38,389 bases of DNA from a virus (IMGVR_UViG_3300028114_000002), one strand, 5' to 3'. Counted from the first letter of the stretch, positions 1,080 to 30,540 are shown. Made by a program: numbers and translations. Notes: a model not told the origin generated them from the letters alone.

Positions 1080-4000
1080 TTAGATTCCGTTACGAGCAAT
1101 TTCGACAACTGCGGCAAGACCCGCATCCCAACGAAGACGAATGATGGAGCCCGCTTGCCCGCGCCAATCCCCCTGCAGGAGGACGGTCGAGGATGCGGCT
1201 AGGTCACAGTAGTTTGCGTTCGAGGTCCCGAGGATTTCAATCTCAGCTCCGTCAACCATACTCGAGGTCGTGATCGTGAACGTCTGAGCCGAGCCCCCCG
1301 TGTACCTAAAGCGCTGTGCCGGAGAATTCGTGGGCGTAATCGAGGAGCCGGTGAAGTTCGACTGATCGGGCGTCTTTGCTCCGCCGGTAGATAGCACCAC
1401 ATCCCAGCGCGTATCCGTCGTGTTGTAGACGAGCAGTGCGCCCTCGTTGAGCTTCAGCACGAGGTCCCGTGCCTGCGGGCAACGGATACGGTTTGCGGAA
1501 GTAGATCCCGCCCCCTGATGGCTGATCGTCACATCTGCGGTAGCGGACGTGTTCACAACCCATAGCATTCGCGGCGAACCGCCCCCTGAAATCCCACCAA
1601 CTGTGCGTGCAGTGGCGGGAGCCAGACGGAACACGGTGATTCCCGTTGAGGTTACGTCATCGGTTGTGCCGGTCGCGGTCGAGTCGTCTACGTCGATAGC
1701 GAGGGTGCCGTCTAAGTGCAGTGTCTCAGCCGGGGATGCTTTGTTGACGCCCATCCGCGAGGTCGCAGTCAGTGTAAGCATTTCGACCGGAGTCGTTGAT
1801 GCGTCGGGCTTCACGAAGAATCCGAGATCGGCGCCCTTACCGTTGGTTGTGCCGACTCCGCGCAGGATGGCGCGGATGTAGCCTACCAGGCGAGTACTGG
1901 CCGAAGGGGAAGTGCCGTTGTTAAGCGAGAAGAATTGCAGAATTCCTGCGATGTCGCTTGCTGCCGGGCTTGCGCGGTTGTTGCCGAGTGCTAGTGCGCC
2001 GTAGGAGTTCGCACCTGTCGCGTCGCCCATCACGTTCACGCGGCCTTCGGTCGTAACCGCGGTGCCGATCGGATCATCGCTCGTCGGAGTGCTCCCGAGA
2101 GTTAGCCGGAAGTTTTTATACCAGCGGGCAATCTCGATGTTGTTCACCCGGAACGGGATTTTGAAATCATCGATCGTACCGAAGAACTTCTCAGCCAGCA
2201 CCGTGTTGCCATCGAGCGTCCAACCGGATCCGCCGCCAGAGCCAGAGCCAGATCCGCCCACCACCTGCCAGCGGCTTGATGCGGTCTCGTAGTAAAGAAT
2301 GACGGCGGCACCGTCGGCCATTGCTATGGCCGCGCCCGTTCCCGTGCGGATACGGTTTGCAGCGGTGCCGCCCGTGTCGTCGTTGAGGTTGACGGATGCG
2401 CCCGTGCGGTTGATGAGAACCAGGAACGTGGCATTTGGCGGCGCCGGAATCATGTCGATCGAAGTCAGCGACCCGTCGGTAACAAGCAAGCTCGTCTTGG
2501 TCGGAGTCGCAAGCGTGGCGTTTGCGCCGGTCGCGGCTGCGTCCGTCTGCTCAGATCCCTGAAGCGTTGCCAAGGCGCGCAGGGCTGCAACAAAGCTCTT
2601 AGCTCCGCCGAAACTCTGTGCCGCGGTGCTGACCGATCCGGGGTTGGTTGCGTCTGCCGGCTGAATCGTAAGGGTGTCTGCCACAAGCGTCGCGCCAGAC
2701 GTGCCTGGAGTAGACCCAAAAGTCGCAAGCGAGAGGGAGCTTCCGCCAGCACCTTGGAAACTGCGCCAAGTGCCGCTCGTCATACAGAAGAAAAAGACTT
2801 TGGAGCCACTGGCCAGCGCAAAGGCAGCGTCGGCGGCACCCGCGTCGATCGCCTCGCCCGAGGCCGGGAACACGTCGCAAGAGGCAGCGCCCGAGTTCTG
2901 CACGTAAAGCTGCATGCCCGCGACTGCCGCGGGGAGCTTGACTGAATCGTTTGCGGTGGCGCACACGCTCACGCGGTTTTGCTGTTTAGCAAGCTGGGTT
3001 GCGGAAGCCTGTCCGCCGCCCGCAAACGCGGTGATTGTGTCGGCAGCCGAGAACATCACGTAGGCTTGCGCAATGATGTTGTTTGCGAACGTCTTCACAC
3101 CCGCGATCGTTTGCGCGATGGCGGTGAGTAACCCCGGCTGGGATCCGTCTGCCGGCTGCAGGGTGAGGACTTGGCCTGAGAGCGAGGCGCCGTTTGCAGA
3201 GGGGGAGCTGCCGACGGCTGCAAGCGACACATCGCCTGAGTTCGTTCCCGCGATGTCAGCGTCACTAGAGAAAGTCAGCGAACGCGCGGCGTTTTTGAGA
3301 TCGATCGTGAGGTCACGATCGGCGTCCTGCGTGACGCTACTCGTGAAAATGAAGCGCGAGAACCAAGACGTGGACGTTTCTTTGATCGAAACACCCGTCA
3401 CGAATTTCTTCAAGCCCGCAATCAACTGCGTGAGAGTTGAGACGCCGCCGGGGTTGGTTGCATCTGCCGGCTCCATGTTTAGCACAGCACCAGAGAGCGT
3501 AAGGCCGTTTGCGTTCGGGGCCGTGCCAAATCCTTGCAGGGTGACGGTCGCGGGACCGGCAGGACCAACGGCGCCGGCAGGACCCGGGGGGCCTGCGATA
3601 CCCAAGTACTCGGACGGATCACGCGCCTGCACGCCGGTACCGTCATCTGAGATTGAGAGAACTTTACCGGCGTTGATTGCGAGGTCGGGGAAAGCCTTAT
3701 CCCGATCAGGCGAGGTGGAACCAAAAAGTAGCGCCCGCCGCATGCGGCCGACCACTTCCTGTACTTGCTGCACGATACGATCAAGCGTGCGCTCGTTCGT
3801 CTCAGGCGGGAAGATCCCCGTCGAAATGTAATCCGTTTCCTGTGTGACGGGCGTCACTCGACGAACGAGTACGCGCTGCGTGGCGGTCGGAGTCGAAACT
3901 GTGACTACCGCACTACCAGGGTCGCCGCCCGAGATTGAATACTGCCCGGGAGCTGTGAGCGTTGTCTCGGTGACTGCTGTCGGCACCGTGTAGTCGCGTA

Positions 4001-7100: not shown

Positions 7101-8050
7101 AGGGGAGCCTCAGTTGCACCTTCCTGGGCTGCCTTACTTGCAATGGCTTGCGCCTCGTCAACCGAAGGGGCAATTGCCTGCCCGGCCTTATCGACGGCAG
7201 TGTTTTCTGCAGTGACCTTTACTTCCGTCTTTGCCGCAGCTCCGGCGGCGCCCTCAGCAACTTCAGTGCCTACTTTGGAGACGCCTCGGAAGGATTTGTA
7301 GACCTTCATTGCGCCAACAAAAACTCCGGCAAGTGCGGCGTCGCCCACGATGCTCGTGACGAAGTTTTTGAAGCGGCCTTCGGCCTCGGTGTCAGTTTCC
7401 TTGGCTGCCCAGTAATCGACAATTCCGTTCTGGAACATCGGGAATCGCTGAACAAAGTTAGCGATATTCCCCTCGTGCGGGTCGGCCGTAAAATAAGAAG
7501 ATACGCCTGCAGCGGCAGCGCTGGCCCCCACAGAAACAATCCCAGGTGCAGCCATAGCCGCAGCGCCTACGCCTGTTCCAATCGCGGTCGCAAACTGGGT
7601 TACAAACTTCCCAGCTCCCCGGAATGCACGCTCTGTGTCGGTCGTAGACGGGGGAGCCAGGTCTTTGCCAAACGTGAACACACGATCGTCATCGATCAAA
7701 TCTGTTTCTTTGATCCCGGTGGTCGTAAGCCAGTTATCGACCGAGTTGATGAGATCATGCCCGGCCTGTACAGCACCACGTGCGACATCTACCGCACCTG
7801 CGGCAAACTGCTTCATCGGTTTCCCGCCGGACAATTCATCCGCGCGGGTAGCCACACCCGAGAGCTCATTTGCAGGGGGGGTTGCCTTTGGGGCGGGCCC
7901 CTCCTGCGGCTGCTGTTTTGCAAGCAGTTCGTCTGCCGGAGCTCCGAAAATATCTTTCTCGAGTTGAGAGATTCGGTTGTCTTGTGACCCCGCAATTTCA
8001 CGGTCTAGTGCGTAGCCGCGTTCCATCGGAGACAGATTTGTCGTATCCAT
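4106..8050 (-). CDS. Large internal virion / DNA-ejection core protein (gp16-like position and size, 1314 aa)
   Basis: Longest ORF. It sits between the gp15-like gene and the fibre, as in T7. I chose the ATG at 8050 (MDTTNLSPMERGY) because it gives a TAATG overlap with the upstream stop; the track extension to 8122 looks off-frame (R/A/G-rich). Alanine-rich, with predicted membrane segments such as GKVAVGTSMLGLGGLLAVEGVITGAG. I saw no lytic transglycosylase motif. Confidence 0.7.
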   Translation of the reverse strand: MDTTNLSPMERGYALDREIAGSQDNRISQLEKDIFGAPADELLAKQQPQEGPAPKATPPANELSGVATRADELSGGKPMKQFAAGAVDVARGAVQAGHDLINSVDNWLTTTGIKETDLIDDDRVFTFGKDLAPPSTTDTERAFRGAGKFVTQFATAIGTGVGAAAMAAPGIVSVGASAAAAGVSSYFTADPHEGNIANFVQRFPMFQNGIVDYWAAKETDTEAEGRFKNFVTSIVGDAALAGVFVGAMKVYKSFRGVSKVGTEVAEGAAGAAAKTEVKVTAENTAVDKAGQAIAPSVDEAQAIASKAAQEGATEAPLDAAATARGHTLVNSGGETITADASAVSAAVAEGRGVLDAARVVEQPTVMRQAQNLRMLSLEELQAPATEATKRFNLDNVPTMGSVDDFRRVVSNIVAANKEGFETIARGVVSDESVLADAFKLLGEDVSRLTTKVPGQGWNAVEVKGAGIFFVNAVQDSVEKAIAAAAPNASDEVIAAFERSKMLTLDSMALFKAGTKEAGLATRAADLSNVTAFPVAEMFAAKDVLTVAGGKEQIQKQAATIVDMMSRMSPAEKVKHFSWMSNRSRLGHLAAMGEELRVMSLLSGPLTQTVNVANNLVNTIGLIPEKYAAWAVQKMRSIVGGKGNPATRLSVDELSSFFGGMPAEEIDATYTAFANKVQSEAVSLAESNATVLSLGQGLKEGWIAYFKAWRTSDPLLTAGGSKLMALERPSTLTGAANGLHGVWADAMDFIGSGIRIPGRALNAADVASKATIYRMQTNALAVRTARAAGLTGDAYTKMVKEMTQFPPAHINMMAAREAGQRTLNYTPEIFTKLYDGISQNPMFRMLVPFTKININQTDQVLQRFPGLAMLTPGFKEAMASGGTARDVALGKVAVGTSMLGLGGLLAVEGVITGAGPTNWQARKALEDTGWQPNSIKVGDGYFSYQALGGVGTLLGIAADLHELAAYWDSPDGDMQGFEDLTLAGAAHIASAAVPDVLTDDFGKVLELLRDGAPTSAWKKLADNFASSLTPNLFKQVNRAFGDKKIDTKLGAQDGAWESVVKPLKASFGVGMPQLNLFGEEVVHPQGTGPAILSAIALVNPFKYSPAKDDPIREELVRLGVSGPLVKPKPLAGQSHLMVDMPPRNISFAYVDGKDSFPVNLTSEQYNRFVELAAGHGLGSIDEIKKAPKERDQKVPNLKDMLGALIKSDYARQLDGKPGIPEAYRTDENKRTVIAEMVGMYRAAAKQQLLLEFPDIREQFLGAQVARSTALGQTVDRDVVENARAQIRSIMGISKDEESTMLKTQQRAKRKGEPTL

Positions 8051-9627
8051 TATTGTGCATCCTTCGCGTGTACTTCCAACGCCTGCTGCCAGTCTCCGTA
8101 AAGGCGCACGCGGCGCTCCCATTCAGAGGCGCCAAATTGACGGATGATTTCCTTCTTCTGCTGAAGCAACGTGGATTTTACCGCATCCATGTTGTTTGCA
8201 CGCATGGAATCCCGGCCGATACCGGGTAGGGGAGGAAGAGATTCCGGGGCTCCGATCATCTGTCGAAGCGCCTTGCGCGCCGCGGGCACGGGATCTACAC
8301 CCTGCTCCATGTACTCGTTGCGTTTGTTGATGACTTCAGCTGCAAGGCGTTCCTTGTCGGCGTTGCCACCCATTTTAGTTGCAAAATCAAACTGACCACG
8401 AGATCCCGTAACGGTAGCGTTGATGATATCGTTAGATACCTGCACCTGGCGTTTGAACGCGGGGTCTGCCTGTTTTTCTTTCGACGCTGTTTTAGCTGCG
8501 CGCAACAACCGCTCGGTGGTCTCACGCGTAAGTGTACCATCATCGAAAGACTTCATAATGTCTTTTTGAATTTTAGACCCCGACTCGCCTTTAAGAATTC
8601 GACTGGTGTAGTTCACGCTTGCGCGCGATTCCATCTCGCCAGAAACATCCTTGGCCTCGGCCTGCAGCCGGTTGTATCCCTCGGGGCTTATCAACCTTTG
8701 CTTGAGTAAATCTTGCGCTTGTTGCAGCATAACGTCACGCTGCGCAGGCGAGGTGGCGGCAGCGACACCCGCAAAAAGTGCGGAATCGTTATTTTGCACC
8801 ACTTGCTCATAGGCTTCTTTGCGCTTCTTTTCAGCTTGCTCTTTTTCATCAAGCACGCGATTCGTGTATTGCAGCTTTGTCACGGCAATCTTCTCAGAGA
8901 GTTTGTTGATATGCGCGGCATCCTTAGCGTAAGGCGCAAGTTTTTGTAGGGCCGCTTCCGCTTCCGAGAATTTCTTTTGCCCAATGAAACCGTTGACGGC
9001 GGTATCGACAAGCGACGCTTGATCATCAACTTTTATCTGCTCGCGCACAGGTGCGGTGTATAGCCCTGTGAGCTGATCAACTTCCTTATTGTTTTTTTCG
9101 ATCTCCTCAATAGCGGCGTCGGGGGCGCTTAAAATCCGCGACGCCCGTGACGCGTAATTGGCCCTACGCGCGCGATCTAGTGCCTCGGGACCACGACGCG
9201 TAACATCAGCGTACACGTTGGCGGCGTAAGAGTTTTTAGCAGCGCCAAGTACATTCTTTGCTTCGGCAGCGATGTTGCCACCAAGTGCATCGATTTCCTT
9301 GGTGATCTCCTTTACTTCATCGTCGTATTTTTTCTGGTACAGCTCAAGCATGTCGGAGCCATCGTCTTTGGCTTCCTTACCGGCGGCAGCAAACGCTTTC
9401 TGTTTTGCCTCTGTACCTGCGTTTTCCACGCGCCCAAGGAAAATCTTTTTCTCCTCAGTGTCTTTGACCTTGAAGTAATCCTGCAGATTCGCCGCGGTCT
9501 TTACGAGATCGTTGCCAAACCCAGCAACAGCCTCACCCTGCGTGCGAGCGCCGCTCGTGCCTCCAATGGGGACAGGCGAGGATACTTGCAGGCGAGTGGC
9601 TTGGTCCTGTAGCGGGATACGCGGCAT
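8050..9627 (-). CDS. Internal virion protein (gp15-like position, 525 aa, highly alpha-helical and charged)
   Basis: Synteny between the gp14-like and gp16-like genes. K/E/A/Q-rich helical composition. TAATG overlaps at both ends (9627 and 8050). Confidence 0.6.
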   Translation of the reverse strand: MPRIPLQDQATRLQVSSPVPIGGTSGARTQGEAVAGFGNDLVKTAANLQDYFKVKDTEEKKIFLGRVENAGTEAKQKAFAAAGKEAKDDGSDMLELYQKKYDDEVKEITKEIDALGGNIAAEAKNVLGAAKNSYAANVYADVTRRGPEALDRARRANYASRASRILSAPDAAIEEIEKNNKEVDQLTGLYTAPVREQIKVDDQASLVDTAVNGFIGQKKFSEAEAALQKLAPYAKDAAHINKLSEKIAVTKLQYTNRVLDEKEQAEKKRKEAYEQVVQNNDSALFAGVAAATSPAQRDVMLQQAQDLLKQRLISPEGYNRLQAEAKDVSGEMESRASVNYTSRILKGESGSKIQKDIMKSFDDGTLTRETTERLLRAAKTASKEKQADPAFKRQVQVSNDIINATVTGSRGQFDFATKMGGNADKERLAAEVINKRNEYMEQGVDPVPAARKALRQMIGAPESLPPLPGIGRDSMRANNMDAVKSTLLQQKKEIIRQFGASEWERRVRLYGDWQQALEVHAKDAQ

Positions 9628-10094: not shown

Positions 10095-10097
10095 CCC

Positions 10098-20103: not shown

Positions 20104-20142
20104 TTCCCCCGGCCCCAGGATACCAGGGGGGAGGAAAAACCG

Positions 20143-21293: not shown

Positions 21294-21310
21294 TTTATTT
21301 CACTTTGCTA

Positions 21311-21337
21311 TTGACAAGGCTAATCACTTATCATAAT
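21311..21337 (+). promoter_or_regulatory. Sigma-70-like early promoter (rightward)
   Basis: TTGACA (21311..21316) and CATAAT (21332..21337) with a 15-nt spacer, or ATAATG/TAATGC at 16/17 nt. An A/T-rich stretch lies upstream (atttatttcactttgctat). First promoter-like element upstream of the early genes. Confidence 0.5.
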
Positions 21338-21374
21338 GCACTGACTCACAATGTACCAACACAAAGGAGTTCAA

Positions 21375-21623: not shown

Positions 21624-21982
21624 ATCGTACATGGCTAGATGGCATCTATCGGGGCATCAGGCCACTGAATTCTCAAACATCTTTTTGGTTCCATATATCC
21701 AACGCGTATTTTTGCCAGATATCCTTATAATGCCTTTCCAGAAAAAAGATATTTTTTTTAGAGAAGTATCTGCCCTAGTCACTACTATGCAAATAGATTT
21801 TAGAAAATCAAGTACTTAGGGGAGTGACGAGGTACTTTAGGGCCTCGTCACTGCCCGGTAACTCATACCCTGCTAGATACTATCTGACACTTAGTTAGGT
21901 CAGACGCAAATTAAAACCTTGTCCAAACGCCATGCTACATGGCATGTAACACACACAACATCTAACCAAGGAGATTAACGCG
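21624..21982. promoter_or_regulatory. AT-rich non-coding island with inverted repeats (candidate regulatory hub or origin)
   Basis: A 359-bp gap that is much more A/T-rich than its flanks (e.g. cagaaaaaagatattttttttagag). Perfect TATAAT at 21726..21731. 10-bp stem AGTGACGAGG/CCTCGTCACT (21823..21832 / 21843..21852). TCTGAC-N10-GTCAGA. TACATGGC at 21628 and 21936. IR GCCATG-cta-CATGGC at 21929..21943. Confidence 0.45.
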
Positions 21983-22291
21983 ATGCCTGTAAAATTAGAA
22001 ACTGTTAAAATTCGAGTACATGCCGCCGGTCAAGTGTTTGAAATGGAAGAAGGGGATAGCTTAGCGGCACAGTGCCTAATACGTATCCCGGAACTAAGGA
22101 AACCCTATGAGCGGGACCTAAAAACGCTCCCGTTCGAAGACGCCGCCGAGATGGCGCAACGCTTTGAGGATTGGCACCCCGGACTCCTAGACCTTCCCAT
22201 CACCTGCCAGGTGTTATCCCTGCATTTGTACCGCGTAAGGCCCCGGGGAACCGGGAAGTACCGCCGCCTAGTGGCCACGCGCACGTTCTAA
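21983..22291 (+). CDS. Hypothetical early protein (102 aa)
   Basis: ATG preceded by AAGGAG with a 9-nt spacer. No motif recognised. Confidence 0.6.
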   Translation: MPVKLETVKIRVHAAGQVFEMEEGDSLAAQCLIRIPELRKPYERDLKTLPFEDAAEMAQRFEDWHPGLLDLPITCQVLSLHLYRVRPRGTGKYRRLVATRTF

Positions 22292-22309
22292 TCCCCCTGC
22301 AAATAATCC

Positions 22310-22338
22310 TTGACTCTCAACGTCCCAACTATCATTAT
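22310..22338 (+). promoter_or_regulatory. Sigma-70-like promoter (rightward)
   Basis: TTGACT (22310..22315), 17-nt spacer, CATTAT (22333..22338), in the 92-bp gap before the gene at 22384. Lies immediately after a CCCCCTGCA motif copy (22293..22301). Confidence 0.5.
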
Positions 22339-22383
22339 CAAATGTACCAACAGCCCTAAAAGCCGAATTGGAGCGGCTAAATC

Positions 22384-22638
22384 ATGAAATACCGATTTAA
22401 AACCACGTTGATAGCAACCTTGCTCGCAGGGAGCCTTGGGGTTTCCTCTTCTCCTGCAAATGCGATCGCGAAGCCGCGCATCTCCCTGGAAGATGCCGTC
22501 GAAAAGCTTCGTGTAAAGTATTCGATCATGGATGCATCCGAGAACATGCGTGCACGTCACAAGCAAGAACGAGCGGAACTAAAAGAGCGCCAAAAAACTG
22601 AGCGCGAATCTCTCAAGTTCCAATTGGGGCGCAAATGA
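22384..22638 (+). CDS. Small exported coiled-coil early protein (84 aa)
   Basis: MKYRFKTTLIATLLAGSLGVSSSPANA/IAKP has a signal-peptide pattern. The C-terminal part is K/E/R-rich and helical. Confidence 0.6.
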   Translation: MKYRFKTTLIATLLAGSLGVSSSPANAIAKPRISLEDAVEKLRVKYSIMDASENMRARHKQERAELKERQKTERESLKFQLGRK

Positions 22639-22823
22639 AAACAAAGCTTGCTGAAATCTTCCGCGAATACTGGAACAACTTTCTTAGCGTTGAAGGCTTT
22701 GCATCGTATTATGGAATCCCGGTTTCCAGGGCGCAACGCATGATTAATCTAGGCCGCTGGGCGCACGACAAAGGCGCTAAAGCCCCTTGGACAATCCAGG
22801 GCCGCAAGGCAGGTAGCAAATGA
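22635..22823 (+). CDS. Small putative HTH DNA-binding protein (62 aa)
   Basis: ATGA overlap with the upstream stop. SYYGIPVSRAQRMINLGRW looks like a helix-turn-helix. Confidence 0.45.
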   Translation: MKTKLAEIFREYWNNFLSVEGFASYYGIPVSRAQRMINLGRWAHDKGAKAPWTIQGRKAGSK

Positions 22824-23035
22824 GTAAGGTCCAAGTAATTGAACAATCGCGAAGCGTCTTCATTACGTGGGACTTTGGCTCCCTGGGATCAAGCCAACGT
22901 TGGCTAAGAAAGATCCGGGGTGCCAAGTGTGTTTCCCCCTGCAGATATGTACGCAACTTATACGGCGAAGAGTTTTTGCTGCGCGAATATCAAGACAATC
23001 AAGGTACGCGTTTTTTAGTGAAGGAGAGTATTTAA
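22820..23035 (+). CDS. Hypothetical early protein (71 aa)
   Basis: ATGA overlap at 22820..22823. The stop abuts the next ATG at 23036. Confidence 0.5.
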   Translation: MSKVQVIEQSRSVFITWDFGSLGSSQRWLRKIRGAKCVSPCRYVRNLYGEEFLLREYQDNQGTRFLVKESI

Positions 23036-23290
23036 ATGAGACATTACATAAAACTTGACCGCAGCGGCCCTCGCGCAAAATCGTTTGGCTTTGGATCGAA
23101 CAATAAGATCACGGAAGGCAAGCAGGACTTGACTTTTGAAGCTGAGTTCTTAACGCAGGAAAAACCCCGGGAGAATGATACACGCAAGTCCCTAGGTTCG
23201 GTGCAACTTGTCGTCCTCCCCTGCAAAACCCGAGAGCTACGGCATTGGCATAATGGTGTGTGCACGGTACTCGCTATGGTGAAAGTATGA
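23036..23290 (+). CDS. Hypothetical early protein (84 aa)
   Basis: The ATG directly follows the preceding TAA. Part of the coupled gene train. Confidence 0.5.
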   Translation: MRHYIKLDRSGPRAKSFGFGSNNKITEGKQDLTFEAEFLTQEKPRENDTRKSLGSVQLVVLPCKTRELRHWHNGVCTVLAMVKV

Positions 23291-23541
23291 ATGTGGATCT
23301 TGGTTACGTGGCAACACGTAGGAAGCGTATACTTGTGGAGCAATGGGAGTTGCCGTTCGCTACCTGCCAAGTGTGGGAAGCGCATGGACCCCCGGGAGCC
23401 CGCCACATTCAGCACAAGTATGCGGCATGCTACTTAGATGAGTTTGGAAAGAAGCAATGGCTACGAGAGCCTGAAACTGATTTTGAAACGGTGTCGGGAG
23501 CACGCACGGCAATTCTTATCTTCATGGAGACTTTAAAATGA
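23287..23541 (+). CDS. Hypothetical early protein (84 aa)
   Basis: I chose the internal ATG at 23287 (MNVDLGY) because it makes an ATGA overlap with the upstream stop. The track start at 23260 overlaps the previous gene out of frame. Confidence 0.5.
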   Translation: MNVDLGYVATRRKRILVEQWELPFATCQVWEAHGPPGARHIQHKYAACYLDEFGKKQWLREPETDFETVSGARTAILIFMETLK

Positions 23542-23630
23542 CAGCAGATTACGGATGGAAATTGTGGGAGCTTGCAATTATTGTGGGTCTCATTATGCTA
23601 GTTGGAACAAAATTAGGGGTGATTAAATGA
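23538..23630 (+). CDS. 30-aa single-pass membrane peptide MTADYGWKLWELAIIVGLIMLVGTKLGVIK (below the ORF-track cutoff)
   Basis: Translated by hand. It exactly fills the gap between two genes, with ATGA overlaps at both ends (23538..23541 and 23627..23630). Confidence 0.55.
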   Translation: MTADYGWKLWELAIIVGLIMLVGTKLGVIK

Positions 23631-24322
23631 GTTCAAAAAGTCGTGTGAGGCCAGGTGTTCCCGCGAGTCGGAAGGACCCTATGCCACCGAAATTTCCGGT
23701 GGAGATCCCCCCTGCAAAAAAAGAGCATTGGCAGGAGGAGCCGGTTAAAGGATGGCTGGACCCCTGGGAGTATTTCATCCAGGATCAAGTCAAACAAAAA
23801 TACCCCGAATTACTTGCACTCACGCCTAGGCGTATGCAAGTGGTTGATCCCAAGTGGGCGGGGCGTGACGAGGAGTCCCGCCTGCAATGGTGGGCATGCT
23901 TTCTCTGGGCATTGGCGGGCCCTGAATCTAATCGTTCTCGGACGATGATCTATGTTGAGGGGACGATGGATAAGGACCCCGTGACGGGCTTCCAGGTGCG
24001 CTCAGAGGGGTTACTCCAGCTGAGCTATCAGGACGTGCCCAACTATAAATATAAGGGTGAAATCTCCTGGGAGAAGGATCGGGAGCTTGCGCGCTTTGAT
24101 TATGAGACGAAAGCGAAGTTCGGAGATGGACTGCGTACGTTGCATTCTGCTTACGCGAATCTTGACTTAGGTCTCTTCATCATGCGCAAGCATTTGGTTG
24201 AATTCAACTCGGATCGATCGTTTGAGGATGCACTAGGCAAATACTGGTATGTGATGCAAACGCGTAACAAGGAAGAGTTTGCGCAGGTGTTGGCTGGGCT
24301 TAAGACTCGGGGGATGCGGTGA
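23627..24322 (+). CDS. Early protein with a possible lytic-transglycosylase (SLT)-like core (231 aa)
   Basis: ...LAGPESNRS...VRSEGLLQLSYQD...HSAYANLD... loosely matches the SLT pattern (catalytic E-S, G-L-M-Q, A-Y-N). Judged by eye only. Confidence 0.35.
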   Translation: MSSKSRVRPGVPASRKDPMPPKFPVEIPPAKKEHWQEEPVKGWLDPWEYFIQDQVKQKYPELLALTPRRMQVVDPKWAGRDEESRLQWWACFLWALAGPESNRSRTMIYVEGTMDKDPVTGFQVRSEGLLQLSYQDVPNYKYKGEISWEKDRELARFDYETKAKFGDGLRTLHSAYANLDLGLFIMRKHLVEFNSDRSFEDALGKYWYVMQTRNKEEFAQVLAGLKTRGMR

Positions 24323-24621
24323 GAATCATCAAATTCGTCTCACGCGAAATTAGCGGTGGGCAGATTGCGCTCTATCCTATCTATGAGAATGGCAGGGAGG
24401 GTGCGCTTGCGTGTAAGTGTACGCCTGAAGTTGCGCACATGTTCATGAGCGCGCCAAGCCTTATGCGTATGGCAGAGCAAGCAACTGGCTCCCCGGACCC
24501 CATCATGCGCAGTCTCGCGCGTACCTCGCTCGCACTCGCGAAGCGTGCGCCAGACGTTCTCCCTGCAAATAGCCGCTCTGATGCGTTCATGAGCATCATT
24601 AGGGGGCTTCGGGATGGCTAA
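24319..24621 (+). CDS. Hypothetical early protein (100 aa)
   Basis: GTG start forming a GTGA overlap with the upstream stop. No motif recognised. Confidence 0.45.
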   Translation: MRIIKFVSREISGGQIALYPIYENGREGALACKCTPEVAHMFMSAPSLMRMAEQATGSPDPIMRSLARTSLALAKRAPDVLPANSRSDAFMSIIRGLRDG

Positions 24622-25015
24622 GCGCATTGGACTCACCAAGGGTTTTCACTGCATTGTGAGTGATGAGGACTTTGAATGGATCGGATCATTCAAATGGCAC
24701 GCATCTATTGCAACGACAGATGAGCGCAGTATCCAAAAAGTATACGCGAAGCGCCGTAGGCGAGTCTCCGAGCCTGGCGAGACAGCCATGGTGTACATGC
24801 ACCATGAGGTCATGAAGCGGCACTTGCGCGAGCAAGGCCTTGACGTTGACTTGGAGCTTGCAGGCAAGTACATCGATCACGGGGATGGGGACTCTTTGAA
24901 TAACACGCGCGAGAATCTTTGGCCTGTTTTGCCGAAAGAGAACATCCCACGCTACACGCTGATCCATAATCAGCCACGCGTGAAGCGTGCGCTTAAGAAA
25001 GCGAGAAGGAAATGA
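24614..25015 (+). CDS. HNH endonuclease (133 aa)
   Basis: ...FKWHA...YAKRRR...MHHEVM...YIDHGDGDSLNNTRENLWPV matches the HNH_3-type signature (DH-x-[DN]-x-x-x-x-N-N-x-x-x-N-L). Confidence 0.8.
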   Translation: MAKRIGLTKGFHCIVSDEDFEWIGSFKWHASIATTDERSIQKVYAKRRRRVSEPGETAMVYMHHEVMKRHLREQGLDVDLELAGKYIDHGDGDSLNNTRENLWPVLPKENIPRYTLIHNQPRVKRALKKARRK

Positions 25016-25275
25016 CCCCCGAATCCAAGACCCCCAGCGCGTGGCCGAGTGAGGAAGACTTCTGTCACATAGCGTGGGAGTGTTTCGGCCAAGACATTGC
25101 GTCGCATAACTTCAAAGGCCTCTACGCAGTTCTCACCACCCGCCTCAAAGACCACGTCATCCTACCAAGGGATCAGGTGGAGAAGCTAAGGGAAGAGATT
25201 GTGAGCGACGTTAAGTCTCTGCGTACATTCGACTGCCTCAACATCCTCGACGCCGCATTAACAAACAACAAGTAA
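25012..25275 (+). CDS. Hypothetical protein (87 aa)
   Basis: ATGA overlap at 25012..25015. No motif recognised. Confidence 0.5.
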   Translation: MTPESKTPSAWPSEEDFCHIAWECFGQDIASHNFKGLYAVLTTRLKDHVILPRDQVEKLREEIVSDVKSLRTFDCLNILDAALTNNK

Positions 25276-25284
25276 AGGAGACCT

Positions 25285-25653
25285 ATGGAAATCAGTGCAA
25301 ATGAAATTGAAATCAACGGCCAAAAGTACGTGAAGAAAGGCACACAGTCGCAGGCAACATCGCCTGAAGGACTTCCCTACGTCATCATCCGCAGCGAGGG
25401 GGCTGGCGTCTTTGCCGGTTACTTGAAAGAGCAGAATGGTCAGGAAGTCGTGATCCTTGAGTCTCGTCGTCTTTGGTATTGGTCTGGTGCCGCATCGCTC
25501 AGTCAGCTTGCCATTGACGGTACATCGAAGCCCAAAGACTGCAAGTTCCCCGAGGCTGTGTCGTCACAGAAGATTTTCAAGGTGCTTGAGATCATCAATG
25601 TGACCCAGAAAGCAAAAGACTCGATTGCGAGCGTGAAGCCGTGGCAACTGTAG
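25285..25653 (+). CDS. Conserved-looking hypothetical protein (122 aa) preceding the Gly-X repeat
   Basis: AAAGGAG lies upstream of the ATG. ...VIIRSEGAGVFAGYLKEQNGQEVVILESRRLWYWSGAASLSQLAIDG... resembles a widespread small phage protein family that I cannot name with certainty. Confidence 0.6.
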   Translation: MEISANEIEINGQKYVKKGTQSQATSPEGLPYVIIRSEGAGVFAGYLKEQNGQEVVILESRRLWYWSGAASLSQLAIDGTSKPKDCKFPEAVSSQKIFKVLEIINVTQKAKDSIASVKPWQL

Positions 25654-25862
25654 AGGTTGATTCCGGCTCCGGCGACGGCTCCGGCGACGGCTACGGCTAC
25701 GGCTCCGGCGACGGCGACGGCTCCGGCTACGGCTCCGGCGACGGCGACGGCTCCGGCTACGGCGACGGCTACGGCTCCGGCTACGGCGACGGCTCCGGCG
25801 ACGGCGACGGCTCCGGCGACGGCGACGGCTACGGCTCCGGCTACGGCGACGGCTACGGTTGA
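25641..25862 (+). CDS. (S/D/Y-G)33 low-complexity protein. Mode of expression uncertain.
   Basis: The frame giving GGC-NNC has 100% G/C at third positions in the array and stops right at the array end (GGT TGA). Its only start candidate is GTG 25641, which has no good SD and lies 10 nt before the upstream stop. That points to reinitiation or a -1 frameshift rather than independent initiation. Confidence 0.4.
   Translation: MATVEVDSGSGDGSGDGYGYGSGDGDGSGYGSGDGDGSGYGDGYGSGYGDGSGDGDGSGDGDGYGSGYGDGYG
25662..25859 (+). repeat. 33 tandem hexanucleotide units GGC-NNC (NNC = TCC, GAC or TAC)
   Basis: Read directly. Every Gly codon is GGC except the last (GGT). Every Ser is TCC, every Asp GAC and every Tyr TAC, with no synonymous variation. 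There are higher-order repeats, e.g. GSGDGDGSGY twice. The region is open in two plus frames and one minus frame. Confidence 0.95.
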
Positions 25863-25896
25863 TCTATGAAAACTTTTCGCAAAGCCTCCAGCAACC

Positions 25897-26241
25897 GTGC
25901 CGCAAAGACGCCGGGGGTGGCGAGTGATTAGCGACTGGCACATGCAGGATGACCGCAAGTCAGGGAAAGTGATCAAAGTCCGCAAGACTTTACGCCCCAT
26001 GGACGAGGCAGCCTCGGATGCGTGGCTAAAGAAGCTCGGCGAATGGATCGAGGCCAATCCTCCCCCTGCCAGTGGCGTGGCCCTAAAAATGGCAGAAGAG
26101 CGCACGACAAACAAGATCGTGTGGTGGGCTCTCAATACCTACGGTAATGTCCAACTCGCTGCCGACAAATTGGGTATGCTGAGATCAACTCTCTTTGAGC
26201 GTATGCGGGCTCAGGGAATTAAATGGGAGCGGAAGAGATGA
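25897..26241 (+). CDS. Fis/NtrC-type HTH (HTH_8-like) DNA-binding protein (up to 114 aa)
   Basis: The C-terminus ALNTYGNVQLAADKLGMLRSTLFERMRAQGI matches the Fis-family HTH pattern (GN...AA..LG..R.TL..K). The start is uncertain (GTG 25897 or ATG 25942), and neither has a clear SD. Confidence 0.6.
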   Translation: MPQRRRGWRVISDWHMQDDRKSGKVIKVRKTLRPMDEAASDAWLKKLGEWIEANPPPASGVALKMAEERTTNKIVWWALNTYGNVQLAADKLGMLRSTLFERMRAQGIKWERKR

Positions 26242-26528
26242 TTATTGAAGTATCGACCTACACCGACGAAGACGAATTGGTTGAATGCAAGTTCGATGTT
26301 TGGCTCCCCGGAGGCGACGACACTCCGCAAGCGACATTCGTCGAGGGTTGGAAAGACGGGCCCGCATTGAGAGAGGATCTGTACGATACGGCGTGGCTCA
26401 GACGTGCTGGCATCTACGATGAATTAGTCGAGGCAGCCTGCGCGAAGTATGATCCGGTGCTTGACTCAGAGCTTGCGGATATTGAGAAGGGTGACAACGC
26501 CTTGGATCTCGCGAGGGAGCTAGATTAA
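26238..26528 (+). CDS. Highly acidic small protein (96 aa)
   Basis: ATG at 26238 makes an ATGA overlap with the upstream stop. By hand count there are 26 D/E against 8 K/R in 96 aa. Last gene before the hairpin at 26532. Confidence 0.6.
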   Translation: MIIEVSTYTDEDELVECKFDVWLPGGDDTPQATFVEGWKDGPALREDLYDTAWLRRAGIYDELVEAACAKYDPVLDSELADIEKGDNALDLARELD

Positions 26529-26607
26529 AAAAAGGGCTCCTGGTTTTTAGCCAGGAGCCCTTAACGGCGTTAACAGATACCATTGGAGCGGACTGAGAGA
26601 CGCCTGA
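26527..26607 (-). ncRNA. Candidate ~80-nt leftward small RNA (predicted from promoter and terminator only)
   Basis: On the minus strand: TTGACG (26642..26637), 17-nt spacer, TACCTT (26619..26614). About 80 nt downstream is the hairpin with its U7 tract. The element sits in the 150-bp gap between the early operon and the primase gene. Confidence 0.3.
26532..26562. terminator. Strong GC hairpin that ends the early operon. Its best T-tract is on the minus strand.
   Basis: AAGGGCTCCTGG (26532..26543) pairs with CCAGGAGCCCTT (26551..26562) around a 7-nt loop. The plus strand is followed only by TT. The minus strand is followed by TTTTTTT (the A-run at 26527..26533). Confidence 0.75.
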
Positions 26608-26678
26608 TCCGGTAAGGTACTAGCGCAAATTAAAATCGTCAAGTAAGTTTCTGTCCGGGGAGCGGAGGGGATCGTCAT

Positions 26679-29048
26679 TTGTTACAGATTTTGGGGCTGA
26701 GGGAAAAGTTCAATTCAAAGCTCGGCATACGTAGACCTAGCGAGGATTTCTTCGCGAAGGGCTGGCGCGCAATGGACTTGCGCACGATGTTTGCCTCCCT
26801 GCCAGATGTGCTGGCGCAGATCCCGGAAGATCAGCGTTGGAACCTGTTCTACACGATGCACCATGTGTTTGAAGAGCCAGGCCGGCGCATGGAGCGCATG
26901 GAGGCCTACGCCTTTGACATCGATCAGATCCCCGGCTTCTCGGGTACGCGCGATCAGGTACGCGAGATTGCGGGTGTGGTTGCGCGCACGCTAGGCCTCC
27001 CCCTGGAAGAACTTGGCGTTGTCTGCAGCGGGAACGGCGTGCACGTTCTCGTATATTTGGACCCGAGTTGTTGGCAGACATCGCCGGAATATTTTGAAAA
27101 GAACCGGGGGCATTACCGGGCAGTCTGCGACAACATCAATCGAGCCCTGGATGTGGCGGGCTACGGGGGCGCAAAAGCTGACCCCGCAATCTTTGATCAG
27201 GCGCGAATTCTCAGGCTCCCCGGAACCCTCAATCGCAAGACGAAAGAGGGGCAGTTACGTGAGCGTAACTGTTACCTCTTGCAGGGGGATTTAAAGCCCC
27301 AGAAAATCGATATCTCCGAGCTCTCGGGGATCCCGGAAGTCAGTCCCGAGGACGCAATCCCCGAGGCGCAGATGGCTAGGTTCCCGGAGCCAGACCCGGA
27401 AGGGGTGCTGGGCGGCTGCAGTTTCCTGAAAGAGTGCAAGGCGCTGCCTAAGACGGTGACGGAGCCCAACTGGTACGCCATGCTCTCGATCATTGGTCGC
27501 TTGCCTAATGGCCGCGAGCTTGCGCATGAATATTCAAAAGGCCATCCAAACTACACCCCTCAGGAGACTGAGGCGAAGCTTGATCAGGCGATGGCCCAAG
27601 CGGGCCCCCGCACCTGCCAGAACGTGCAGGATCTTTGGGGCAAATGTAAGCAGTGCCCCTATTACGGAAAGATTCCGAGTCCGATCGTTATCAAGGGCGA
27701 GAACTATATCGCAACCGAGAAGACGGGCTTTCACCACATGACGACGGGCCAGGACGGGAGACCGAAGCCTGGCAAAGCCGACTGGGATGGGCTGAGAAAG
27801 TTCTTTCAGCGCAAACACCCCTACGCAACGCTTGCCGATGGCGAGTATCTAGTGACCTGGACCGGCACCCACTGGCAGGAGTATTCAAAGGTTGAGGCAA
27901 AGGCATTTGCGCAGAAGCACTTCAGGCCGGTAGCGGATACGAATAAAGCGAATGAGTTCCTGGGAATTTTGCTACGCAATGAGGTGCGCCCCCGGGGTTG
28001 GACGCAACATGGGACGAAGGGGAAATTGAACTTTCTTAATGGAACCCTGGAGCCCCGTACGATGTCGTTTGGTCCGCACAACCGAGACGACGGATTCATG
28101 AACGTGATTCCCTACGCGTATGATCCGAAGGCTGCGGCTCCTCGGTTTGAAAAGTTCCTTGATGATGTGACATGCGGGCACCGGGAGCTTCGCGAAATCC
28201 TCCTGCAATATATCGGATACTCGCTCTCAAACGATGCGATATGGGAACAGAAATGCCTCATCCTGCAGGGGGAGGGACGCAACGGAAAATCCACTCTAAT
28301 GCAGGTAGTGCGCGAGCTTGCAGGTGAGGGTAACTCTGCGTCGCTGACTCTCACTGAGCTTGAAAAAGACACGAACCGTTTCTCGCTTGACGGTGCGTTC
28401 TTTAATATGGCCGAAGAAGCTCCCACGCGTGGGATGCTCGAGAGCGGAATCTTCAAGACGCTCATTGGCGGCGGGAGCTTCCAGGTAAAGAAGCTTTACT
28501 CGCAGCCGTACTCAATTCAAAATCGTGCGAAGCTCTGGCTTGCGTGTAACGACATGCCTCGCTTCAACGACTTCACGGTGGGGATGTTCCGCCGGCTTGT
28601 GATCGTGCCTTTCCAGGCGAAGTTTGAGGGAGCAAACGTCGATAAGAACATCGGAGCAAAGCTCAGCGAAGAGCTCCCCGGAATCTTCAATCTTGCGATG
28701 GCAGCCTACGGGCGGATGCGCGCAAACGGAGGACTCCTGGATTCGCAATTGGTGCAGGAGCAGGCCGACATGTACCGGCTTGAACAGGACTCGGTGTACA
28801 ACTGGTGGCAGGATAATGTCGAAGTTGTACCCATGTCGGAGACGGCCCCCCGGGTTGACTCAAGTAAGTTATTCCAGGAGTACGCAATGCACATGCGCCA
28901 GTCGGAGGAGAAGCCTTTGTCTGCTCAGCAATTCCAAAAGCGTGTGCGCACATTTGTGAAAGATATTGAAGCTAGGCGCGTGCGATCAAATGGCGTGCGT
29001 TGGCTCATAGGCATTTCGTTATTGACAAGGCGTATGGAAAACTTCTAG
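26679..29048 (+). CDS. Bifunctional AEP primase-polymerase / SF3 (D5- or P4-type) helicase (789 aa)
   Basis: AEP motifs AFDID, SGNGVHV and ILRLPGTLNRK. A Cys cluster CQNVQDLWGKCKQCPYYG. Walker A ILQGEGRNGKST and Walker B-like region. TTG start at 26679 preceded by GGAGGGG. Confidence 0.85.
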   Translation: MLQILGLREKFNSKLGIRRPSEDFFAKGWRAMDLRTMFASLPDVLAQIPEDQRWNLFYTMHHVFEEPGRRMERMEAYAFDIDQIPGFSGTRDQVREIAGVVARTLGLPLEELGVVCSGNGVHVLVYLDPSCWQTSPEYFEKNRGHYRAVCDNINRALDVAGYGGAKADPAIFDQARILRLPGTLNRKTKEGQLRERNCYLLQGDLKPQKIDISELSGIPEVSPEDAIPEAQMARFPEPDPEGVLGGCSFLKECKALPKTVTEPNWYAMLSIIGRLPNGRELAHEYSKGHPNYTPQETEAKLDQAMAQAGPRTCQNVQDLWGKCKQCPYYGKIPSPIVIKGENYIATEKTGFHHMTTGQDGRPKPGKADWDGLRKFFQRKHPYATLADGEYLVTWTGTHWQEYSKVEAKAFAQKHFRPVADTNKANEFLGILLRNEVRPRGWTQHGTKGKLNFLNGTLEPRTMSFGPHNRDDGFMNVIPYAYDPKAAAPRFEKFLDDVTCGHRELREILLQYIGYSLSNDAIWEQKCLILQGEGRNGKSTLMQVVRELAGEGNSASLTLTELEKDTNRFSLDGAFFNMAEEAPTRGMLESGIFKTLIGGGSFQVKKLYSQPYSIQNRAKLWLACNDMPRFNDFTVGMFRRLVIVPFQAKFEGANVDKNIGAKLSEELPGIFNLAMAAYGRMRANGGLLDSQLVQEQADMYRLEQDSVYNWWQDNVEVVPMSETAPRVDSSKLFQEYAMHMRQSEEKPLSAQQFQKRVRTFVKDIEARRVRSNGVRWLIGISLLTRRMENF

Positions 29049-29067
29049 GTTAGTGGGTGGAGCGGCA

Positions 29068-30540
29068 ATGATCGAATTCGATAAATTATGGGACCACCAA
29101 AAGCGAGCCGTCGCGCTCGCCATGCAGCAGCGAGACTTCGCGCTGTTCCACGACATGGGCGCGGGCAAGACGGGCACGATGATCAATATCCTGCGCCGCC
29201 GCTATGGCGAGGCCGGGCGCCTGCGCCGCACGCTGATCGTCTCGCCGCTCATCACGCTTGATAACTGGAAGAAAGAATTCGGGCAATTCTCGAAGGTGGA
29301 TCCCCGGCACATTCTTATCTTGAAAGGCGCGGGCCGTAAGCGTGCAAAGGATTTCATGAAGTTTGTTTCGGACCCCGTGACCGAACGACTTGTTTTCAAC
29401 CGCGTGGTCATCATGAACTACGAGTCGGTTCAAATGAAGGAACTGTATGACGCAATCAAAGCCTGGAATCCTGAGATCATTGTTTTTGATGAAGCTCATC
29501 GACTCAGAAATCACCAGTCAAAACGCGCGCGAGCTTGCGCGAATCTGGCTGACATCGCAAAGCACCGATATCTGCTTACGGGATCGCCGATCCTTAATTC
29601 AGCAATGGACGTGTTCTTCCAGTACCGCTGTCTCGACCTTGGAGACACGTTTGGGCAGAACTTTTACGCCTTCCGAAACCGATACTTTGAAGACCGAAAC
29701 TCTGGCTGGGCTAGTAAGCCTGGTTACTTCCCCGACTTTGAAGCTCGTCCTGAGGCTTTTGCCGATCTCCACGCGCGCATGTACAAAGACGGCAGAGGGC
29801 TTGCCCGCGCCCACCGAGTGATGAAGAAAGACTGCCTTGACCTACCCCCACTGGTGAAGACCAAGATCGAAGTAGAGCTCTCGCCGGATCAACGGAAGAT
29901 GTACAAGGAAATGTCAGACGAGTTCCTGACATTTGTTGAGCGCGAGAAACAAACGGGCACACCACTAGCAGTGGTGGCACAGCTTGCAATCACGAAGGCG
30001 CTCCGCTTGCAGCAGATCGTAACCGGCTTCTGCAAGGCGGAAGACGGAGTTGAGTATGAGATTGCAGGGGGGAATCCCAGGCTCGAGGCGCTAGAGGAAT
30101 TGCTTGAAGACTTGGCTCCGAACGGCAAAGTAATTGTGTGGGCATGCTTTAAGCAGAACTACCAACAGATTGCACGCGTGTGTGACAAGCTGAAGCTCCC
30201 TTACCGGATGATCCATGGTGAGATTAGGAACGCTGATAAGCAGATAGCCATGGAAGAGTTCCGCAAAGACGAATCGATCAAGGTGATGATTGCAAACCAG
30301 GGGGCTGCAGGCATTGGCGTGAATTTGGTTGAAGCCCCGTATTCTGTGTTTTTCTCCCGGAACTTTTCGCTTGAGCAAGATACTCAGGCCGAGGCACGCA
30401 ACTATCGCGGTGGATCTGAGATGCATACAAGTGTGACTCGCTATGATATTGTTGCGCGAAATAGTATTGACGAGTTAATCGCCGACGCGTTAGCAGGTAA
30501 GCAGAAAATCGCAGATACCATTCTCGATTGGAAAATATAA
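29068..30540 (+). CDS. SNF2-family (DEAH) helicase (490 aa)
   Basis: Motif I DMGAGKTGT, motif II VFDEAHRLRN, motif III LLTGSPILN, and C-terminal motifs GAAGIGVNL and QAEARNYRGGS. I chose the ATG at 29068, which follows GGTGGAG. Confidence 0.85.
   Translation: MIEFDKLWDHQKRAVALAMQQRDFALFHDMGAGKTGTMINILRRRYGEAGRLRRTLIVSPLITLDNWKKEFGQFSKVDPRHILILKGAGRKRAKDFMKFVSDPVTERLVFNRVVIMNYESVQMKELYDAIKAWNPEIIVFDEAHRLRNHQSKRARACANLADIAKHRYLLTGSPILNSAMDVFFQYRCLDLGDTFGQNFYAFRNRYFEDRNSGWASKPGYFPDFEARPEAFADLHARMYKDGRGLARAHRVMKKDCLDLPPLVKTKIEVELSPDQRKMYKEMSDEFLTFVEREKQTGTPLAVVAQLAITKALRLQQIVTGFCKAEDGVEYEIAGGNPRLEALEELLEDLAPNGKVIVWACFKQNYQQIARVCDKLKLPYRMIHGEIRNADKQIAMEEFRKDESIKVMIANQGAAGIGVNLVEAPYSVFFSRNFSLEQDTQAEARNYRGGSEMHTSVTRYDIVARNSIDELIADALAGKQKIADTILDWKI

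Follow-up and report, generated by a model that had tools for sequence, protein, structure and literature searches.

A dispersed polar 9-mer with sister motifs in an uncultured podovirus lineage, possibly a Chi-like signal

What could hold eleven identical copies of one 9-mer in place along a small phage genome? The question is raised by a 38,389-nucleotide (nt) stretch of DNA from the virus IMGVR_UViG_3300028114_000002, analyzed here at its full length and called the window. Its first 127 bases repeat its last 127 exactly (positions 1-127 and 38263-38389), indicating a circular assembly of 38,262 base pairs (bp), and in this genome the 9-mer TGCAGGGGG, or CCCCCTGCA on the opposite strand, occurs 11 times, with seven copies on the plus strand and four on the minus strand. 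By analogy with known systems, we tentatively favor the idea that the 9-mer is a Chi-like signal for a host nuclease of the RecBCD/AddAB type, although we put this at somewhat less than an even chance. A preliminary description of the window had reported the same number of copies; ten of its positions were right and the eleventh, given as 7872, should be 7871, and the near copies that it listed were all found, with coordinates within 1-2 nt. The exact copies are as follows.

1169-1177, minus strand: gene for a 1009-amino-acid (aa) fiber protein, codon 978 (LQGD), G-rich strand as sense
7871-7879, plus strand: gene for a 1314-aa virion protein, codon 58 (PPA), C-rich strand as sense, extending to TTGCAGGGGG
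16376-16384, plus strand: scaffold-like gene, codon 29, in a poly-Pro stretch (PPPPA)
20493-20501, plus strand: small-terminase (Sf6-type) gene, codon 172 (PLQ)
20961-20969, plus strand: small-terminase gene, codon 16 (PLQ)
22293-22301, minus strand: intergenic, starting 2 nt past a stop codon
22935-22943, minus strand: intergenic, about 100 nt upstream of an 84-aa early gene that starts at 23036
23708-23716, minus strand: 213-aa early gene, codon 10 (PPA), C-rich strand as sense
27280-27288, plus strand: D5/P4-type primase-helicase gene, codon 201 (LQGD), G-rich strand as sense
28264-28272, plus strand: primase-helicase gene, codon 529 (LQGE), directly before the NGKS Walker A motif
30063-30071, plus strand: SNF2 helicase gene, codon 337 (IAGG)

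Dinucleotide shuffles of the genome gave a mean of 0.37 copies (maximum 3), and an order-3 Markov model predicted 0.81. Shuffles among synonymous codons, which keep the proteins and the codon usage of each gene, gave a mean of 2.8 copies, including the two fixed intergenic ones, with a maximum of 7 in 1000 shuffles, while whole-codon permutation within genes gave a mean of 2.4. Within coding sequence, 9 copies were observed compared to about 0.8 in the protein-preserving shuffles. Both readings of the motif were in excess, with 4 copies in the G-rich sense (0.35 expected, codon-aware) and 5 in the C-rich sense (0.50 expected). Allowing up to one mismatch to the 9-mer yielded 36 matches where 10.4 were expected, and once the words of one coding tandem repeat are set aside, this is the top 9-mer of the genome. 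Runs of GGGGG were ordinary (97 overlapping occurrences, 88-113 expected). These data establish that the over-representation is real and robust. Codon-aware shuffling had been named beforehand as the analysis that could reduce the motif to a quirk, and its counts lay far below 11; the protein-preserving and codon-permutation shuffles rule out a compositional or codon quirk.

Coding copies are read in four contexts, LQG[DE] (three copies), PPA (three), PLQ (two) and IAGG (one), and two further copies, at 22293 and 22935, are intergenic, where only one had been counted before. Among the contexts listed earlier, PPA, PLQ, LQG[DE] and AGG were recovered, while SPC was not reproduced in any called gene. 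Because the copies occupy four coding contexts and two intergenic sites, a peptide motif is ruled out and a constraint acting on nucleic acid (DNA or RNA) is supported, as the preliminary description had proposed; the codon-aware shuffles and the separate enrichment of both orientations back the same claim. Its account of transcription also held, with the C-rich strand as sense for seven copies and the G-rich strand for four. The base preceding the motif was a pyrimidine (Y) and the base following it a purine (R) in all 11 copies, giving the full motif Y-TGCAGGGGG-R, and 8 of the 11 extend to TTGCAGGGGG, in line with the earlier statement that most copies are longer than nine bases. Alignment of the 11 copies revealed no conservation beyond these flanks and this extension. 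A literature search for the 9-mer as a string returned only primers and eukaryotic elements.

The window also contains a second class of the motif. CAGGGGG occurs 24 times in the genome (about 8 expected), preceded by G in 12 cases and by C in 9. The 8-mer CCAGGGGG has 9 copies compared to 3.0 in codon-aware shuffles, a count that was reached in 0 of 500 shuffles, and 5 of these 9 copies read ACCAGGGGG. Since TGCAGGGGG and CCAGGGGG have the core CAGGGGG in common, we refer to the latter as the weaker sister; together, as [GC]CAGGGGG, they number 21 in 38 kb, or one per 1.8 kb. The second-class copies lie at the following positions.

10967-10974, plus strand: CCAGGGGG in the gene for a 775-aa virion protein
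17588-17595, plus strand: ACCAGGGGG in the portal gene
19677-19684, plus strand: ACCAGGGGG in the large terminase gene
20123-20130, plus strand: ACCAGGGGG, intergenic between the small (TerS) and large (TerL) terminase genes
20440-20447, minus strand: CCAGGGGG in the TerS gene
26999-27006, minus strand: CCAGGGGG in the primase-helicase gene
30297-30304, plus strand: ACCAGGGGG in the SNF2 gene
32233-32240, minus strand: CCAGGGGG in the gene for an RNase T-like exonuclease
34089-34096, plus strand: ACCAGGGGG in the DNA polymerase A gene

The 9-mer copies are not an assembly artifact, because independent assemblies from ENA, Logan and JGI that are 99.99-100% identical hold the same copies; one JGI contig (L124) spans the circular junction. 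Data sets that contain the phage are ENA ERZ27250415 and ERZ27250602, SRA SRR8441842 and SRR8441487, and JGI 3300029268 and 3300027728. The genome is that of a podovirus of the HTVC010P/BPP-1 type, with a head-tail connector (PF12236) that is 45% identical to pelagiphage portals. Its other recognizable genes encode an Sf6-type small terminase, a large terminase, a Phage_capsid_2 protein, a CHAP endolysin, a D5/P4-type primase-helicase, an SNF2 helicase, a family A DNA polymerase and the RNase T-like exonuclease. Pfam and PHROGs searches of the window proteins found no integrase, RNA polymerase, methyltransferase or recombinase, and no single-strand annealing protein, RecA-like protein, Exo, Gam, exonuclease-annealase pair or RecBCD inhibitor; more than 20 open reading frames (ORFs) of the window have no family assignment. 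There are no tRNA genes in the window, and no Rfam covariance model matched at gathering score anywhere in it. The genes are laid out as follows.

21016 to 1080, leftward: structural genes, from TerS to the fiber gene
21016-21375, no strand: divergent control region, with TerS leaving leftward and the early operon rightward; reference point for the motif
21375 to 34680, rightward: early and replication genes
24614-25015: HNH endonuclease gene
34667-34993: small endonuclease gene
34.5-38.3 kb, leftward: small block of lysis and fiber genes

Is the motif confined to this phage? A collection of 5.8 billion proteins contained no phage with 66-100% portal identity, and none of 50,697 phage records had DNA-level similarity to the window. 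The relatives that we compared are contigs with 54-63% portal identity, listed here with copies observed and expected.

L041 (portal 54%, G+C 52%): CCAGGGGG 11 times in 21.6 kb, 2.0 expected (codon-aware); CCAGGGGGT 7 times, 0.5 expected
L036 with L125 (37.4 kb, nearly complete; portal 61%, G+C 45%): CCAGGGG 20 times, 3.5 expected; 40 copies of CCAGGGR
L040 (portal 63%, G+C 48%): CCAGGGG 8 times, 2.9 expected, a weaker excess
L127 (portal 60%, G+C 45%): CCAGGGG 7 times, 1.8 expected, a weaker excess
L034 (portal 62%, G+C 45%): no motif
L038 (portal 60%, G+C 44%): no motif

The sister motif of L041 is CCAGGGGG(T), and CAGGGGG, with 12 copies in its 21.6 kb, is as dense there as [GC]CAGGGGG is in the window; a phage of the L041 type is recorded as JGI Ga0613784_000811 (38,871 bp). 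No motif was found in 18 Rhodospirillales prophage-like loci, 10 IMG/VR loci or 80 metagenome loci (41-59% identity), and a scan of the genome collection matched only Rhodospirillales loci of 32-36% portal identity, which do not carry it. As far as these sequences allow, the exact 9-mer is private to the window phage but is one of a family of motifs in its sub-lineage, all built on the core CAGGGG. The preliminary description would have read absence from close relatives as the sign of a compositional quirk; taken literally, this criterion does not bear on the window, for which no phage of 66-100% portal identity turned up. The more distant relatives lack the exact 9-mer but have sister motifs with a CAGGGG core, which argues against a quirk.

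At least two core copies lie in or beside the TerS gene in each of the window, L041, L036 and L040, namely four in the window (20123-20969), three in L041, an inverted pair 110-165 nt upstream in L040, and flanking copies in L036. The Pro-rich N-terminus of the scaffold gene has 1-3 copies in the window, L041 and L040, and the gene for a virion protein of about 1,200-1,300 aa has copies in the window and L041. Presence of the motif was discordant with the portal phylogeny, since L041 (54%) has it and L034 and L038 (60-62%) have none, which fits dependence on something outside the virion module, such as the host. It was better tracked by the N-terminal domain of the primase, with similarities of 42-50% among motif-bearing phages compared to 29-39% to motif-less relatives. 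Two motif pairs of L041 form intragenic inverted repeats, ACCCCCTGGCGCAGGGGGT (7233-7249) and CCCCCTGG-N9-CCCAGGGGG (20584-20609). The idea that every phage of the group has a dispersed 9-mer of its own did not hold among the 80 metagenome loci, where the strong matches were tandem coding repeats (L048), clustered control-region iterons (L034, L036, L040, L047, L054), GC-rich hairpins (L052), and ribosome-binding-site or peptide words (L063, L076). We also rejected an analogy with the L034 palindrome CTTGCAAG, which likewise contains TTGCA, as it has 7 copies compared to 1.9 under an order-3 model.

Alternatively, the motif may do nothing for the phage and be a passive imprint of host mutation or repair bias, or of an oligomer that abounds throughout the host's DNA, as DNA uptake sequences and HIP1 do. 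Host-wide oligomers can show up in the phages of that host, and the inverted pairs of L041 (7233/7243 and 20584/20603) recall paired uptake sequences; however, the window has no inverted motif pairs. CCAGGG was specifically enriched, while CCWGG in general was not, nor were CCAGGT and CCAGGC, which rules out a general CCWGG (Dcm/Vsr) bias and argues against a Vsr-type origin. HIP1 was not enriched in the window (4 copies, 1.9 expected); on this count, and because the 'Microcystis phage' with the closest annotated TerL lacks the motif, has 59% G+C and codes for Rad52-like proteins and an integrase, both HIP1 and a cyanobacterial host were rejected. A passive imprint would also yield neither exact 9-mers with Y and R flanks nor the position-dependent polarity described below, and we regard it as very improbable. 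A restriction or methylation target was rejected as well, given that Pfam and PHROGs detected no methyltransferase and that the motif is asymmetric and enriched rather than avoided, whereas such targets are as a rule palindromes or 4-7 nt in length; the palindromes that the window does avoid are other sequences, given below.

A phage-encoded system for site-specific nicking, as in T5, phiKMV-like and tf/LUZ24-like phages, would instead place a nick at each copy. The nick motif TACTRTGMC/WACTRTGAC, likewise an exact 9-mer, recurs 9-14 times per ~45 kb compared to 0.7 expected, 88% of its copies are in coding sequence, and related phages carry slight variants (PMC3517423, PMC11780129). The window comes close to these statistics, having 11 copies per 38 kb compared to 0.4-0.8 expected, 9 of 11 in coding sequence, and sister motifs in relatives; placement is likewise mostly intragenic, blind to reading frame and uneven, and the HNH and small endonucleases of the window supply potential enzymes. 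The described nick motifs, however, lie on a single strand, whereas the window copies are split 7:4 (core 14:10), with both orientations enriched. One-mismatch variants are scarce in tf but enriched 2.4-fold in the window. Motif-bearing L041 has no equivalent of the HNH gene, whose sole weak homologue is in motif-less L034, and no nickase candidate common to the motif-bearing relatives was found. Nicking at each copy is an unlikely explanation.

How, then, are the two orientations arranged? For CAGGGGG in the window, the G-rich strand is the plus strand at 7.8-21.0 kb (9 of 10 copies), the minus strand at 22.3-27.0 kb (5/5), plus again at 27.3-30.3 kb, and minus at 1.1-1.6 kb (3/3). The copies closest to the divergent control region face that region from either side, and the flip in the structural arm occurs near the antipode, inside the fiber gene (Fisher P=0.014). 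The nearly complete relative L036+L125 shows the same pattern: 14 of 15 copies from TerS to 17.6 kb face the control region and 5 of 6 beyond this point are oriented the opposite way (P=0.002), with gene strand unchanged across the switch, and the six early-side copies closest to the control region also face it. The switch falls between 1.6 and 7.8 kb in the window, where the antipode is at 2.1 kb, and at about 17.6 kb in L036+L125, where it is at about 20 kb. Scoring polarity as the G-rich strand pointing to the control region along the shorter arc, 18 of 24 CAGGGGG copies face the control region in the window, 27 of 40 copies in L036+L125, and 8 of 12 in L041. The two replicate relatives alone gave 35/52 (P=0.009). 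Because the flips occur inside same-strand gene blocks and the codon-aware expectation does not favor the observed orientation, polarity is position-dependent and a property of the DNA, not set by transcription.

Collectively, TGCAGGGGG and the weaker CCAGGGGG resemble a polar recognition sequence that is read on DNA, and its most likely identity, though held with less than even confidence and argued from analogy, is a Chi-like signal. The motif is G-rich and asymmetric, and six of the eight bases of the 8-mer GCAGGGGG agree with the E. coli Chi GCTGGTGG. The lambdoid E. coli phage LLS carries 23 copies of GCTGGTGG, one Chi per 1.86 kb, of which 20 are in the active orientation and half are near the RecBCD entry end, while the P. 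aeruginosa phage MD8 carries 32 Pseudomonas Chi sites, GCTGGCGC, on one strand (PMC12315714). Both phages lack a recombination module (PMC12315714, Genome Res 2025). The window resembles them in having a short, asymmetric, G-rich oligomer about once per 1.9 kb, some 15-30 times more often than by chance and in coding sequence, with an apparent orientation bias relative to the putative genome end, some clustering near that end and no recognizable phage recombinase. The orientation seen would let a nuclease that enters at the control region reach the motif from the 3' side, as it does with Chi in LLS and MD8. That Pfam and PHROGs detected no recombinase, RecBCD inhibitor or related protein in the window would fit this class of phages with no Rec module and high Chi. 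Clustering was borderline, with 5 of the 11 exact copies inside 3.2 kb around the control region, which they face from both sides (scan P=0.06).

In the mechanism that we envisage for a Chi-like signal, a host helicase-nuclease of the RecBCD/AddAB type would enter linear phage DNA from its ends, which would be in or close to the control region between TerS and the early genes. On reaching the G-rich strand of the motif from its 3' side, the enzyme would switch from degradation to RecA loading, and this switch would both protect the genome and supply recombination for circularization and concatemer formation to a phage that has no recognizable recombinase of its own. With both ends at the control region, by way of pac/headful packaging or direct terminal repeats, bipolar end-facing sites and a mixed middle would be expected, which is the arrangement seen. 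Which protein reads the motif, where the genome ends lie and what the phage gains are all inferred.

Several points weigh against a Chi-like signal, and it should be interpreted with caution. Chi is defined by its excess and leading-strand skew on the host chromosome; the motifs of LLS and MD8 are experimentally known host Chi sites, whereas the window motif is a candidate drawn from phage sequence. Counting the Y and R flanks, the motif has 11 positions compared to 5-8 nt in known Chi sites, and unlike LLS and MD8, the window has 9-11 defined positions with a second motif class alongside. Nearly all copies in LLS and MD8, which are cos phages with one open end, have one orientation, whereas the window is enriched in both and bipolar. 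The CCAGGGG core occurs in phages of 45-56% G+C that differ in restriction-site avoidance, so Chi would have to be near-identical across several host genera. Generic runs tests for orientation blocks were not significant (P=0.09-0.34), and five CAGGGGG copies, three of them exact 9-mers, face the 'wrong' way in the primase, SNF2 and PolA genes. The genome ends in the end-facing model are putative, and many early ORFs have no detectable family, leaving room for a hidden recombinase. Lastly, a phage-encoded reader fits at least equally well with the way in which motif presence tracks the N-terminal similarity of the primase.

Such a reader could be the phage replisome. The D5/P4-type primase-helicase might start primers on the C-rich strand of the motif (template 5'-CCCCCTG-3', primer pppAGGGGG), or pause or load there, and the motif would then mark lagging-strand templates wherever forks move away from a control-region origin; we consider this rather unlikely. 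In both the window and L036+L125, the orientations on the two sides of the control region mirror each other and change over near the antipode, the spacing of 1.6-3.5 kb is the size of Okazaki fragments, CCCTG is on the C-rich strand of every variant, and motif presence is better tracked by primase than by portal similarity. The 789-aa enzyme belongs to the P4 family of primase-helicases and has a winged-helix-like domain at its C-terminus; its N-terminal primase domain has no family assignment. The E. coli DnaG template trinucleotide is CTG, primers made by P4 alpha begin with pppAG, primases of the T7 gp4 family use 5'-GTC-3', and the type I iterons of P4 alpha are TGTTCACC. Like these, the window motif is a short polar sequence that a replication protein could read, with CTG on its C-rich strand; unlike the P4 iterons, which are clustered at ori and crr, it is dispersed through genes. 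We know of no primase with a 7-9-nt requirement, as known primase sites are 3-5 nt long and show no enrichment. The five wrong-way core copies in the replication genes at 27-34 kb contradict a single bidirectional origin, and there are gaps of 5-9 kb without copies. Taken as one class, a motif family (TGCAGGGGG, CCAGGGGG(T), CCAGGGR) read by a co-evolving phage enzyme, whether as a primase/replisome signal or by a two-stranded, position-dependent nicking system centered on the control region, is a genuine but minority possibility.

The control region itself (21016-21375) has no copy of the exact 9-mer and is filled by other repeats, a perfect 12-bp palindrome, GGGGTGCACCCC (21149-21160), and two copies of CCCKGGGGCGCACA (21240-21253 and 21280-21293) that are 40 bp apart and just upstream of an early promoter at 21313. 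These look like candidate operators or iterons, separate from the 9-mer, of which 2 of 11 copies are intergenic. Because the region is occupied by these repeats and the 9-mer is not clustered there, we rejected the 9-mer as an iteron or operator of the control region. The relatives have phage-specific clusters of 9-10-bp repeats in 100-400 bp of non-coding DNA between the early genes and TerS, as follows.

L034, 3949-4240: GGACACCTA
L036, 55-131: CCTTGTGAC
L040, 1105-1388: ACGTGTCTCA
L054, 183-512: GGACAGGAT
L047, 2594-2861: GGGACAGAT

These clusters are probably origin iterons or operators. Like the 9-mer, they are phage-specific 9-10-mers in several copies, but they are confined to a non-coding region of 100-400 bp, whereas TGCAGGGGG is spread over 29 kb of mostly coding DNA.

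A site for a sequence-specific double-strand DNA-binding protein, be it TerS with a distributed pac-like signal, a regulator or an architectural protein, is an improbable reading, but some copies are suggestively placed. In size, Y-TGCAGGGGG-R would suit a helix-turn-helix monomer or a winged-helix protein, and the window, L041, L040 and L036 each have at least two core copies in or beside TerS. The 22293 copy ends 8 nt upstream of the -35 element TTGACT of a sigma-70-like early promoter (22310-22338), and shares with the 20493 copy a 23-nt context, CCCCCTGCA-AWTAATCN-TTGAC (window 20476-20501 and 22293-22315), with 11 of 14 bases identical past the 9-mer; the 20493 copy is within the TerS gene, the 22293 copy next to the promoter's -35 element. 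Against a binding site, 9 of 11 copies are inside genes and far from promoters, the control region has different clustered repeats, as it does in relatives, the window and L041 do not share their early small DNA-binding proteins, headful or cos packaging has no need of dispersed sites, and position-dependent polarity is unexpected for a simple site.

Promoter elements were rejected as well. For sigma-54, with TTGCA as the -12 element, the GG at -24 is absent; for sigma-70 or a phage promoter, there is no conserved -10, the copies have no single orientation to the genes, and 9 of 11 lie within genes. No phage RNA polymerase was found in the window, and 4 of the 11 copies are oriented to transcription opposite to the other 7. 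The roles listed in the preliminary description fared unequally, with Chi-like or polarity signals and nicking still favored and a modification site or a classical clustered operator or iteron disfavored. The same 12-mer, AATGTACCAACA, stands downstream of both sigma-70-like early promoters, TTGACA (21313) and TTGACT (22310), at 21350-21361 and 22341-22352, and a degenerate form, ATGTACGCAAC, follows the motif copy at 22935.

Sister motifs in relatives, a second class in the window and a position-dependent polarity independent of transcription are new observations. Few short polar DNA signals that extend genome-wide are known in phages, mainly Chi in one class of lambdoid phages and, for T5, phiKMV and tf-like phages, the nick motifs; this uncultured podovirus lineage is a third well-defined case, in which the family drifts between relatives, and its bipolar orientation is shared by none of the known cases. 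If the motif is a host Chi, it would be a candidate Chi for a host group without a known one and would help to link these phages to their hosts in metagenomes by sequence. If a phage enzyme reads it instead, it would point to a nickase or primase that recognizes a specific site of 7-9 nt, of mechanistic interest and possibly a tool, and to a kind of genome-wide polar signal described for no phage. We see a substantial, though clearly minority, chance of a phage-encoded system of a new variety. Under either reading, the motif-bearing and motif-less relatives are a ready comparative set.

Other features of these genomes bear on their hosts. Several palindromes are avoided in the window, namely GTCGAC (0 copies, 12 expected), AGATCT (1, 12 expected), TCCGGA (1, 12 expected), CACGTG (1, 11.7 expected) and GCTAGC (0, 5.9 expected), a pattern that suggests several host Type II restriction systems. 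Kin of two avoided palindromes that are one base longer are enriched, with CACGCGTG occurring 8 times (1.1-1.4 expected) and TCCCGGA 28 times (7.9 expected). In the 19.7 kb of L127, TGGATCCA occurs 9 times (1.2 expected). CTGCAG occurs 39 times in L036+L125 (18.6 expected) and 0 times in L040 (7.8 expected) and L052 (5.2 expected), while GGATCC is absent from L041, L034 and L052; these contrasts in palindrome usage point to different host restriction landscapes. The record named Microcystis phage Mvi-Yong1342-1 (L126, PP496355.1) has an integrase gene, and its G+C content of 59% is far above the roughly 43% of Microcystis; a heterotroph present in that culture may be the real host.

A few further features of these sequences were noted. 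The longest ORF for the DNA polymerase (32590-34680) has 696 aa, but in public annotations the identical protein begins further downstream and is 610 aa long; a 68-aa gene is called upstream. An ORF at 25641-25862 (73 aa) is nearly filled by an 18-nt (or 12-nt) coding tandem repeat at 25664-25858, which encodes GDG(S/Y)-type repeats and gives rise to the genome's top-ranked 9-12-mers. JGI contigs of 50-200 kb, of which the longest measures 124,122 bp, also list the portal (P0001) and polymerase (P0122) of this phage. Their length, well above the 38-kb genome, could reflect a concatemer, misassembly or an integrated copy. In L034, the large terminase gene (7374-9578) is split by an intein with Hint_2, Intein_splicing and LAGLIDADG domains.

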